Source: a virus
Virus genome (UHGV): UHGV-0246164
DNA: 35,288 nt
Strand: one strand, 5' to 3'
The first letter of the stretch is position 1; the number at the start of each line of letters is the position of its first letter. Below, piece by piece: positions 2,484 to 34,853 of the stretch. Position numbers and translations under genes: made by a program. Below the pieces are notes generated by a model that ran no database searches, was not told where the DNA came from, and saw only the letters and a program-made list of their open reading frames with translations.

Positions 2484-2508
2484 AAAAAAACCCGCTCGGC
2501 GGCGGGTT
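2484..2508 (-). terminator. Intrinsic terminator closing the Phd-like/Doc moron
   Basis: On the minus strand: AACCCGC-cgccga-GCGGGTT followed by TTTTTTTATGGAGTTTTTAT. Lies between the doc stop (2531) and the spike gene start (2472). Confidence 0.6.
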
Positions 2509-2530
2509 GTGTACAATTTACTTTTTGCTA

Positions 2531-2938
2531 TCAGTAGCCAGTTATCGTATCTGCCAGCAGCTCATTCTTATAATCTGACAAAAGTTTAAGCGCCAAAGCA
2601 GTGTTATCGCAGTCGGCCTCTCCCGTAGCAGCAAAGATGGTCAGCTTGACTAACTCCATTGAGGTATTCAGTTCATAGCCATTCAAAAGCAAAAACACGC
2701 TGGCGGCCTGGAAAGCCGTTCGCTTATTGGCGTCATTAAAAGCGTGAGACTTCGCTATCGCAACCATGTACATAGCTGCAAATTTAAATAAATCCTCACA
2801 TCCTTCATACATGCGTAAGTTATCGACGCGATTGAGGGCACCTTCGAGTTTTCCCCGGTCTGGTTGTCCGCTATTTGGCAATGTGCTCTTCTGAATAGCG
2901 ATGACCTCATCTACCGAAAGGAATGTAATCTCAGTCAT
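2531..2938 (-). CDS. doc: Doc (death-on-curing) family toxin, Fic/Doc fold
   Basis: 135 aa ORF containing the Doc signature H-x-F-x-D-A-N-K-R (HAFNDANKRTAF). TAATG one-nucleotide overlap with the upstream antitoxin-like ORF. Confidence 0.8.
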   Translation of the reverse strand: MTEITFLSVDEVIAIQKSTLPNSGQPDRGKLEGALNRVDNLRMYEGCEDLFKFAAMYMVAIAKSHAFNDANKRTAFQAASVFLLLNGYELNTSMELVKLTIFAATGEADCDNTALALKLLSDYKNELLADTITGY

Positions 2939-3351
2939 TACTTATCTTCCAGTTTTTTTATGATGTCCGCATGCTTGGTCTGAGTATGTTGCAGAGCTTT
3001 GATAAATGACTCAGACACGCCCTGCAAAGCAACTGCTGCATTAGTGGCCTTCATCATAGTCTGGCGAGCCTCATCAGACTGAAGAAGGGCATCCAATTGC
3101 TTAGTAAGCTTCATGACACCCTCCGTTATCTGTGGTGACAAATTCGATGCAATTAATTGCGCAAGATGCGTGTCTATTGTTTTCGCAGATGTTTTTACCT
3201 CATCTGCGGAAGCGATTTCATCAACTGATTTTGCACTGATGACAAGGTCGGGCTTTCCGCGCTGCGTAACTGTGACGCTTTCACCAGAGCGTAAACAGTC
3301 CAGCGTTGCAGATAAATCCGATCGCATTTGCGTGTAAGTAATGATTTTCAT
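2938..3351 (-). CDS. Phd/YefM-like antitoxin with a long C-terminal extension
   Basis: N-terminus MKIITYTQMRSDLSATL...VTQRGKPDLVISA resembles the Phd/YefM fold. Preferred start is ATG at 3351 with a GAGGG Shine-Dalgarno (the track ORF begins at 3369). About 137 aa against roughly 73 for canonical Phd. Confidence 0.6.
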   Translation of the reverse strand: MKIITYTQMRSDLSATLDCLRSGESVTVTQRGKPDLVISAKSVDEIASADEVKTSAKTIDTHLAQLIASNLSPQITEGVMKLTKQLDALLQSDEARQTMMKATNAAVALQGVSESFIKALQHTQTKHADIIKKLEDK

Positions 3352-3362
3352 GGCACCCTCTC

Positions 3363-3374
3363 TGTACATGTACA
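3363..3374 (-). promoter_or_regulatory. Perfect 12-bp palindrome TGTACATGTACA upstream of the Phd-like start; candidate autoregulatory operator
   Basis: Palindrome read directly from the sequence, about 12 nt upstream of ATG 3351 in an AT-rich stretch. Phd-type antitoxins are known to bind palindromic operators. Confidence 0.4.
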
Positions 3375-3433
3375 GATTAGTGCATAATAAAAACGCGAGA
3401 TCAACGATTATTGATGTTTAAGGATGCGGATCA

Positions 3434-3784
3434 TCATTTCACCTTCACGCAGTCGTATGTTGCATACTGACGCGGCGCATCCATGCTGGCTTGCAACCAC
3501 TGTGCGTTGAGAATGGCTTTGCCGTTGCGCTTGATGTACTCAAGCCCAACCCAGCGGCCGGGTTGGTCGGTTGCAACCATCCATTCTGCTTTCATGTTTT
3601 GGTAGTCATCTTTAGACTTGAGAAAAGACATTTTTTGCGTTTCAGGTTTTACCCCGTTAATAAGCATTAGTCCTTCTTTGCCCGCAGTGAGGCGATACGG
3701 CCCGCACTGAGTATCAGCTAAGGCCTCTGACGTGCCGACAACTGATAAAAGAACACCACAAATTAGAAGTTTGGCCTTACCCAT
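3434..3784 (-). CDS. Small secreted (periplasmic) protein of unknown function
   Basis: 116 aa ORF with an N-terminal signal peptide (MGKAKLLICGVLLSVVGTSEALA then DTQCG) and a second Cys near the C-terminus. Overlaps the hub gene stop by 22 nt. Looks lower in GC than the flanks by eye. Confidence 0.55.
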   Translation of the reverse strand: MGKAKLLICGVLLSVVGTSEALADTQCGPYRLTAGKEGLMLINGVKPETQKMSFLKSKDDYQNMKAEWMVATDQPGRWVGLEYIKRNGKAILNAQWLQASMDAPRQYATYDCVKVK

Positions 3785-4853: not shown

Positions 4854-5159
4854 CTACTCCTGTACGAAAATGAGGTGGCTGTATGTGCCGAGGTTGGTTT
4901 TGGTGGGCTCGTCCGGTGCGCCTACATCGCAGCCAACGAGCAGCGCCCCGTTAATACCTAGTTGAGGATATTGCTCAAGAAGATTTACACCGGTTACCAG
5001 CGGCACGCCAGAAAGAAGCGGTTCGCCACTGCTATCTTGTACATCCAGAATCCAGCCAGCAGAATCACGCCAAATGACTCTCAGCGTGTATGTTGTCTCT
5101 GCTAACTGAATGCGAAATAGCTGGTTATCCGGCGATAAAGGGATTTCAGTTACATTCAT
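4854..5159 (-). CDS. Tail/baseplate assembly protein (putative)
   Basis: 101 aa ORF packed between the tail genes, ending 3 nt before the hub start. Confidence 0.4.
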   Translation of the reverse strand: MNVTEIPLSPDNQLFRIQLAETTYTLRVIWRDSAGWILDVQDSSGEPLLSGVPLVTGVNLLEQYPQLGINGALLVGCDVGAPDEPTKTNLGTYSHLIFVQE

Positions 5160-33732: not shown

Positions 33733-33897
33733 ATGAGAGGACTTGCATACAATCCCGGCATTCTTCCGGCAGAAATGATTATTCGCCAACGCGTAAAGCC
33801 AATGCCATCGAGAGAGGAATTGCTTAAGAGAAAGAGTTTCGGTTCTGTTAATGACAACAAATATCTGAATGCGATGTGGCGGAGTGGGAAGAAATGA
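33733..33897 (+). CDS. Small ORF (54 aa) translationally coupled to the HNH gene
   Basis: ATG 33733 with GAGGA 8 nt upstream. Stop TGA 33895-33897 overlaps ATG 33894 of the HNH gene (ATGA). Below the ORF-track size cutoff. Confidence 0.35.
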
Positions 33898-34853
33898 AAC
33901 AAATGTCACTAATTGAGATGGATGGTTTTCTGAAAGGTAAATGCATCCCATGTGATTTAAAGGTTAACGAAACAAACGCTGAATATCTGGTGCGTAAATT
34001 TGCTGAAGCGGAGGCCAAGTGCGCGGCGCTGGCTGCGGAGAATGCGGGGCTGAAAGACACTCTATCAGCAGTGATTGACCGCAGTAACGAGCCTGATTAT
34101 CAAAGCATCGGAATGGGCTGTGGTGTTGAGGATAACGGTCTTCAGACTGACGGTTATAACGCCTGTGAATATGGATGGCGCGAAGCAATGGATCGCATTT
34201 ACTCAGAAGTTATTCCAGACACTATTCCTGAAACCCCGGCGACAGACGCCTTCCTGGCTGAAGTTAGGCGTGAGGCATCTGAACCACTCCAGAAGGAAAT
34301 TGAAATCCTTAATAAGAATCTGCTCATGTCTGTTGGCGATATCAGAGACCTTATTGACTACAACCCTGAAACTGGAGTTCTTACCGCGAAAGTCAACTTT
34401 GCAGGTCGTCAGGAAGGAGCAATTATTGGCTCTCAAACTTGGCAGGGCTATTACGCCTTTTCGCTGTTTGGCAAGAAGTGCTTTGCTCACCGTCTAGCAT
34501 GGCTTCTACATTACGGAGAATGGCCTTCCCAGCCTATCGACCATATCAATGGCATCAAGAAAGACAACAGCATAAGAAACCTGCGCCTTTGCTCTCTATC
34601 GCAGAATCAATTCAACAAACCAACCCAGAAAAATAACACCACTGGTGTCAAGGGGGTCTATTGGAATAAGCGCGATAAGCGATATGTAGCAAGCGTTCAA
34701 TTTAACGGGAAGAAGTACAGCGCAGGGCACCATAAGGATATCGAAAGCGCAAAGGAAGCCGTTATGAAGCTAAGAGAAAAACTTGCAGGCGAATTTACTA
34801 ACCATGGTGAATTCGAACTCGCCGACCAGTTACGACAGGGAGCAGCGCTATGA
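33894..34853 (+). CDS. HNH endonuclease with AP2 domain and an N-terminal domain of unknown function
   Basis: C-terminal HNH ([28 protein letters not shown]) and AP2 ([28 protein letters not shown]) parallel the HNH gene at 24204-24710. N-terminal 180 aa unassigned. Start ATG 33894 (track GTG 33876). Confidence 0.7.

Follow-up and report, generated by a model that had tools for sequence, protein, structure and literature searches.

Phd-Doc is the textbook model of conditional cooperativity, in which an intrinsically disordered antitoxin tail links neutralisation of the toxin with binding to the operator, and a toxin-binding tail is present in every Phd/YefM antitoxin. In phage P1 (PDB 3K33, 3HRY, 4ZM0) the antitoxin counts 73 aa, as verified on its sequence, and the literature describes an operator of two adjacent palindromic sites and a Doc toxin with two Phd-binding interfaces. 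In P1, Salmonella and Enterococcus faecalis, binding and inhibition of Doc require no more than a helical peptide from the antitoxin C-terminus (PMC9207808 and PMC13034048 for the latter two). For Salmonella Typhimurium a peptide of 22 residues suffices, with mapped hot spots at F56, I59, M60, H63, L67 and L70, i.e. a spacing of 0/3/4/7/11/14 (PMC9207808). The E. faecalis pair (PDB 9VZC, PMC13034048) is modular: the antitoxin enters Doc with a bent helix at its C-terminus (52-79), and the DNA-binding head can be of another type, which recognises a single palindrome. In the E. coli YefM-YoeB system the operator core of YefM has been experimentally defined as TGTACA (PMC1802561).

Here we describe a Phd-Doc pair found on the minus strand of the window (the whole stretch of DNA analysed, 35,288 nucleotides). 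Several properties are shared with P1: the antitoxin gene lies upstream of doc and overlaps it, the pair is borne by a temperate phage, P1 Phd is a top Foldseek match for the N-terminal fold, the homologous Doc carries the HxFx(D/N)(A/G)NKR motif and the C-terminal helix is expected to act as the neutralising element. The differences concern the antitoxin length (73 aa in P1), the distance between the head and the key phenylalanine (14 residues in P1, 74 here), a tail sequence that is not detectably related and the use of a single 14-bp palindrome instead of two sites.

The other systems each share a part of this organisation. Salmonella Typhimurium Phd-Doc has the same spacing of tail positions, but its antitoxin has the canonical 73 aa, the residues at these positions are different and the genes are chromosomal rather than prophage cargo. 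YefM-YoeB likewise employs a Phd/YefM head that recognises TGTACA-core palindromes overlapping the promoter (a putative operator in our locus), whereas its cores are 12 bp apart from centre to centre, compared to abutting cores at 6 bp here, and its toxin is YoeB instead of Doc. The modular E. faecalis antitoxin differs by an AbrB/MazE-like head, a length of 79 aa without a long insert, and a neutralisation that goes together with Doc dimerisation. Finally, the N-domain of Mycobacterium tuberculosis VapB46 (PDB 6JQY) is the closest structural match to the head (TM 0.86, rmsd 1.1 over 42 residues), although it pairs with a VapC toxin of the PIN-domain type and has an unrelated C-terminal part.

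The cassette and its control region

The features of the locus are as follows (coordinates refer to the window):

2489-2508, minus strand: intrinsic terminator-like hairpin plus T-run downstream of doc; part of the conserved flank and common to the TA-less prophage L003
2509-3437, minus strand: cargo cassette (putative promoter/operator, antitoxin, doc), delimited by the break points against the TA-less E. coli prophage L003
2531-2938, minus strand: doc toxin gene, 135 aa, Fic-fold kinase with intact HAFNDANKR motif (profiles and P1 Doc structures)
2938-3351, minus strand: antitoxin gene, 137 aa plus stop (ORF list, RefSeq and lengths of the relatives)
3356-3361, minus strand: Shine-Dalgarno sequence AGAGGG, 5-10 nt upstream of the ATG at 3351
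3362-3375, no strand: putative operator, a perfect 14-bp palindrome CTGTACATGTACAG with two abutting TGTACA cores (cross-locus conservation)
3376-3381, minus strand: -10-like hexamer ACTAAT (GCTAAT in relatives), preceded by TG-n as in an extended -10 (cross-locus block)
3399-3404, minus strand: -35-like hexamer TTGATC (TTGCTC or TTGACT in relatives), read by eye, 17 nt upstream of the -10-like hexamer

The window represents a lambdoid-type prophage with a contractile-tail module. It encodes a portal, a major capsid protein, a DUF3383 sheath-like protein, Rz, replication protein O, a DnaC-like protein and an S24 repressor, and no tRNA genes are found in it. Near the early/integration end lies a 325-aa ORF (33876-34850, plus strand) with an HNH_3 endonuclease domain and a sub-threshold AP2 match.

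The TA pair is bordered on one side by the baseplate spike/V gene and on the other by the gene of a small secreted-looking protein. Prophage L003, which is without the pair, is 97% identical up to position 2508 and its homology returns at 3438. Because homology breaks at both slot edges and other cargo occurs in between, the pair can be regarded as swappable cargo: it is a discrete insertion in a slot that accepts alternative contents, as is typical of prophage accessory genes (morons), and it carries a putative promoter. The slot (2509-3437) is a cargo hotspot, holding DUF4236 or small hypothetical genes in related E. coli prophages (L003:2110-2681). The neighbouring 116-aa protein (3434-3784, minus strand; phrog_3443) adjoins the cassette and has a signal-peptide-like N-terminus; its gene is conserved together with the baseplate module, also where a prophage has no TA pair. 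The cassette is rare and present in 6 out of 5,426 complete E. coli genomes. No match was obtained among 50,697 sequenced phage records, and a plasmid search yielded two distant matches.

The toxin is readily recognised. Doc scores 81.3 bits against TIGR01550, well above the cut-off of 38.65, and it also matches Pfam Fic and phrog_577 as well as the P1 Doc structures (E=7e-20). Together with the HxFx(D/N)(A/G)NKR motif, this score identifies it as a Doc toxin. In PADLOC it weakly matches candidate defence models (PDC-M59B, E=1.9e-6); the same search gave no match for the antitoxin.

The antitoxin gene is the minus-strand ORF 2938-3351, which runs from the ATG at 3351 to the TAA stop at 2940-2938 and encodes 137 aa. 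Its N-terminus reads MKIITYTQMRSDLSATL...VTQRGKPDLVISA. The gene lies immediately upstream of doc, the order expected of a Phd/YefM antitoxin, and its stop codon shares a single base with the doc start at 2938 (TAATG). RefSeq lists the identical 137-aa ORF (WP_001515093.1) under the name Phd/YefM family antitoxin in E. coli prophages, so the protein is already labelled as such in databases. In the alignment of all relatives conservation begins exactly at M1. Whole-gene dN/dS amounts to 0.07-0.19, and one frame is retained at 128-157 aa across genera. A preliminary description of the locus, made from the bare sequence, had put the antitoxin at about 137 aa, coupled to doc by TAATG and with a Phd/YefM-like N-terminus; the ORF and the profiles bear out all three points. 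The same description left room for a true start much further downstream. This is excluded by the RefSeq call, the conservation from M1 onwards and the palindrome at the alternative ATG. That alternative codon (3367-3369, minus strand) is located upstream, coincides with the CATG centre of the palindrome and gives rise to database records of 143 aa (e.g. P0002). The 143-aa form, starting from the ATG at 3369, is likely a recurrent mis-call of the start site.

A block TG-C-[AG]CTAAT is found directly 5' of the palindrome in all loci that retain the N-domain, and the spacing between the -35-like and -10-like hexamers is unchanged in related loci. From this conservation across loci, read by eye, we infer a promoter at this position; a strict consensus scan called none. 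The palindrome itself escaped the inverted-repeat tool, probably since its arms abut, and was verified directly in the sequence. Its core TGTACATGTACA is invariant upstream of every locus with a head, though the flanks diverge, and the outer bases differ in four loci (L005, L006, L008 and L021). Most likely the head forms a dimer that binds CTGTACATGTACAG, a site overlapping the -10/+1 region, and thereby represses the promoter of its own gene. The pair would in that way be autoregulated through the putative operator.

Anatomy of the antitoxin

The antitoxin can be divided into four stretches, the middle two of which make up the insert:

3229-3351, minus strand: residues 1-41, predicted minimal Phd/YefM DNA-binding and dimerisation domain (partial Pfam/NCBIfam matches, Foldseek, dN/dS 0.04-0.10)
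3157-3228, minus strand: residues 42-65, variable, indel-rich and mostly disordered linker (alignment indels, pLDDT, dN/dS)
3016-3156, minus strand: residues 66-112, two predicted amphipathic helices, lineage-specific insert (predicted helices, dN/dS, motif)
2941-3015, minus strand: residues 113-137, nearly invariant C-terminal helix SESFIKALQHTQTKHADIIKKLEDK, putative Doc-neutralising element (invariance, dN/dS, pLDDT, mini-forms)

By curated cut-offs the protein marginally misses membership of the Phd/YefM profiles. It scores 28.5 against PF02604 (cut-off 29.8) and 20.2 against TIGR01552 (cut-off 20.8), and the match is confined to residues 1-38/42. In the precomputed Pfam field, the identical protein and almost every relative are assigned to PF02604. 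Also the alignment to P1 Phd is limited to residues 2-46 (E=0.015). The AF2 model of the head consists of a strand (2-5), two helices (6-11 and 13-21) and two further strands (25-30 and 33-39) at a pLDDT of 81-88, and a Foldseek search with residues 1-41 returns P1 Phd, the VapB46 N-domain and YefM as top matches. The predicted head thus has the Phd/YefM fold. It is nearly invariant as well, with a dN/dS of 0.04-0.10 based on five gapless orthologues. What sets the protein apart is its size, since Phd/YefM antitoxins usually have about 70-95 aa with the tail directly following the head, against 137 aa here.

The part beyond the head had previously been described as an extension of about 70 helical residues. 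An extension is indeed present, with a disordered stretch (45-59) followed by predicted helices, but its length is closer to 95 residues. The linker shows a pLDDT below 50 at residues 45-59 and a dN/dS of about 0.5 in the five gapless orthologues. The helices in 66-112 are moderately conserved (dN/dS 0.11-0.36 in the same five orthologues) and contain the motif SP[QE]..EG.....KQL..L..S.E, which is common to relatives down to about 40% identity. AF2 places helices at 56-70, 73-91, 93-109 and 114-136. When the C-terminal part is modelled alone, the pTM is 0.27 and a confident globular packing does not emerge.

We searched for residues 43-137 in isolation, as had been proposed for the C-terminal part. 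This retrieved the members of the family plus three spurious long repeat proteins: a profile of 43-137 against 1.84 billion representatives gave no homologue of the middle beyond the family. The C-terminal profile found nothing significant among the PDB sequences and no Phd match, and the only Foldseek match of the C-terminal model has an E-value of 7.6, which amounts to no fold match. Weak Pfam matches (HTH_40, Ribophorin_II and others) were dismissed as noise. As far as these searches and predictions reach, a known domain in the approximately 70 extra residues is excluded, and residues 42-112 are a genuine family-specific insertion that accounts for the doubled length. We also considered whether the middle helices are duplicates of the tail helix. 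The hhalign similarities (51% for B versus C, 12% for C versus D) are suggestive only, and the signal for an internal repeat lacks significance.

The last 25 residues behave differently. Their consensus reads SESF.KAL.HTQTKHA.IIK.LEDK, or F..AL..T...HA.II..LEDK when reduced further, with invariant columns at F116, A119, L120, T123, H127, A128, I130, I131, L134, E135, D136 and K137. The dN/dS is 0.03-0.08 in the five gapless orthologues, and the pLDDT of this helix (81-90) is the highest in the model of the C-terminal part alone. Judged from the comparison of loci, the helix is very probably the Doc-neutralising element, because it is the sole part of the antitoxin that always accompanies Doc.

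Its relation to the tail of P1 Phd is less evident. We slid the P1 peptide (51-73) along the antitoxin using BLOSUM62: the register that places F56 on F116 scores 10 and ranks third, and 34% of the shuffles reach the top score. Homology to the P1 tail is not claimed on such a non-significant alignment; the tail would be an analogue of the Phd tail or else a strongly diverged form of it. Residues F116, A119, L120, T123, H127 and I130 do have the 0/3/4/7/11/14 spacing of the Salmonella hot spots, but given that the P1 peptide fails to align significantly, the shared spacing appears to be a generic amphipathic pattern only.

Natural variants of the family

Comparison of about 90 relatives shows an antitoxin with a three-part anatomy and a constant Doc partnership, along with truncated and replaced variants and a conserved palindrome. 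The word-indexed search produced 68 clusters, all of 128-157 aa and nearly all from Enterobacterales. The exhaustive profile search (residues 43-137 alone against 1.84 billion proteins) added up to 36 representatives of 50% identity clusters, three of which are spurious: P0076, P0075 and P0086 are long repeat proteins, as read for P0076 and deduced for the other two from their length and multiple matched stretches. A literature search on the long antitoxin form found nothing. One 98%-identical copy (P0015) is labelled Pseudomonas donghuensis in a family that otherwise belongs to the Enterobacterales; this label may reflect contamination or recent transfer.

In every long-form locus examined doc is located immediately downstream. 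Doc is 65-94% identical throughout, whereas the antitoxins outside the tail drop to about 26-45% identity or are replaced altogether. The contexts are prophages in all cases but one: most copies occupy the same baseplate slot and others adjoin antiterminator Q and lysis genes. The exception is Morganella (L005), where the neighbours are not phage-related (an aminotransferase-type regulator and an Lrp-like gene).

The middle is variable and spans 31-151 aa across the family, with P0080 (31 aa) and P0082 (151 aa, a repeat middle) at the extremes. In Enterobacter mori and Lelliottia head and tail are kept, while the middle is unrelated and beta-looking. A sister group (L006:4001-4369, L008:4001-4342, P0089, P0090, P0092 and P0094) has the same head and tail with an unrelated middle that resembles beta strands, e.g. 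TIIEVVRDAHGQAYYVKKAPNGEIITKV. Apparently the middle has been swapped here as a module. P0082, with a total of 214 aa, reaches its 151-residue middle through a unit like ELQKKLEATGVARELVEQMRKSGVF that is repeated about three times in tandem, which suggests growth of the spacer by tandem duplication.

The shortest forms occur in Xenorhabdus prophages. Four mini-antitoxins of 56-57 aa (L010:3983-4153, L011:706-876, L013:3965-4138 and L014:3965-4138) consist of a short leader and the LEDK tail helix, without head and middle, and directly precede an intact doc. The tail helix is therefore the only part of the antitoxin that is kept in these forms, although the viability of their hosts is only indirect evidence that the tail alone suffices. 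At these head-less loci the palindrome is degenerate (L013 and L014, CTGTACACATACAG) or absent (L010 and L011). Two other tail-helix ORFs (L012:3929-4156 and L015:3923-4159) have no doc-like sequence within about 4 kb, and the one in L015 comes after a HicB/HicA-like pair. These could be orphan anti-Doc immunity genes or remnants.

Decaying copies are observed as well. Doc carries an internal deletion in L007 (4198-4358) and a frameshift in L020 (3471-3831). On a Pantoea plasmid (L009:4001-4222 and 4949-5062) a head-only remnant of the antitoxin and C-terminal fragments of Doc lie among duplicated toxin-like genes.

Role of the insert

Overall, we consider it reasonably probable that the protein is a type II antitoxin of three modules, namely the head, a lineage-specific insert acting as a tether or accessory arm, and the Doc-neutralising tail. 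That the head binds DNA and the tail binds Doc, like any function of the insert, is assigned here by analogy and comparison, and should be read accordingly as a prediction. As an amphipathic helix, residues 113-137 would bind the Doc kinase and neutralise it, the role played in P1 by Phd residues 52-73. Between head and tail, residues 42-112 would provide a linker that is disordered and almost free of constraint, and then two helices under moderate constraint. Such an insert could determine how far Doc can be reached from the dimer on the DNA and in what stoichiometry the two combine, and so tune corepression; weak additional contacts, or an influence on the susceptibility of the antitoxin to proteases, are conceivable as well. 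We infer that the insert is dispensable for Doc neutralisation, because it is absent or unrelated in natural variants with an intact doc. On the other hand, the helices in 66-112 are under purifying selection and therefore likely have some function; judged by this selection, neutral junk is excluded. A long tether or accessory arm is our best guess, yet a pure tether model leaves the specific role indicated by the conserved motif and the selection on 66-112 unexplained.

An alternative is an enlarged neutralisation domain. Helices 66-112 and the tail would then wrap Doc together in a sub-lineage-specific manner, for instance in the high-affinity groove and at the second Phd site at once, and full inhibition or a fixed 1:1 complex would depend on them. 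The purifying selection on 66-112 (dN/dS 0.11-0.36) and the persistence of SP[QE]..EG.....KQL to about 40% identity agree with this, as do the S-x-E/Q cap with which all three helices open in the same register, their weak hhalign similarity (51% for B versus C) and the two Phd-binding interfaces of P1 Doc. The absence of confident intramolecular packing (pTM 0.27) would be expected for segments that fold on a partner. Nonetheless, Docs of 65-76% identity pair with antitoxins that lack these helices or have an unrelated middle, and the internal repeat is not significant, which makes us regard the enlarged domain as rather unlikely. A modified Doc-neutralising region had been among the earlier suggestions: the last 25 residues do behave as a neutralising tail, but the approximately 70 residues of 42-112 form a separate insertion. 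That the extension is just the normal Doc-binding tail of a divergent Phd subfamily is half true. The 25 near-invariant residues that stay with Doc fit that description, but they are only 25 out of the 95 extra ones and have no detectable sequence similarity to the tail of P1 Phd.

An added regulatory or sensor domain had also been put forward, and for this we find no support: homologues outside the family, matches to PDB sequences or folds and confident globular packing (pTM 0.27) are all lacking. In its most explicit version the middle (42-112) would be a specificity or sensing surface that couples Doc release to an infection signal, i.e. it senses a protein of an infecting phage or a protease and frees Doc, making the cassette a Doc-based anti-phage module for defence or superinfection exclusion. 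The position of the cassette as cargo in a variable prophage slot with accessory genes adjoining, the fast evolution and varying type of the middle, as for an arms-race surface, and the weak PADLOC matches of Doc (PDC-M59B, E=1.9e-6) are in line with such a role. However, the middle contains no recognisable domain, its fast-evolving part (42-65) looks disordered, unlike a binding domain, the antitoxin has no PADLOC match and the literature search on the long form found nothing. Both the sensing function and the anti-phage module are in our opinion improbable. Much less credible still is an annotation artefact, in which a wrong start, two fused ORFs or a decaying gene would hide a real antitoxin of normal length. 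Some records do call the 143-aa form from the upstream ATG, and at other loci the system is degraded (L007, L009 and L020). Against this, different genera share the frame at a length of 128-157 aa with a dN/dS of 0.07-0.19, the Shine-Dalgarno sequence and the start of conservation both point to M1, the upstream ATG falls at the centre of the palindrome and doc is intact with its catalytic motif. A wrong start or fused ORFs are ruled out by the Shine-Dalgarno sequence, the conservation from M1, the RefSeq ORF and the dN/dS.

Summarizing, the three-module antitoxin represents an unusual variant of a well-known system that would work like Phd-Doc, and the understanding of Phd-Doc itself is unchanged. 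New is a small, prophage-borne subfamily with a tripartite and plastic architecture and, as we read it, a portable invariant anti-Doc helix. If the improbable sensing surface were true, the LEDK tail would be a portable anti-Doc peptide exchanged by phages and prophages, and the Doc-less Xenorhabdus orphans could be immunity or anti-addiction genes. The variants form a natural series: head and tail stay the same, the distance between them ranges from 31 to 151 residues, and the tail sometimes stands alone. This series is well suited for testing how the length and content of a tether affect neutralisation, corepression and antitoxin turnover. In addition, the 25-residue invariant helix may serve as a second template, with an unrelated sequence, for peptides that inhibit enterobacterial Doc toxins.
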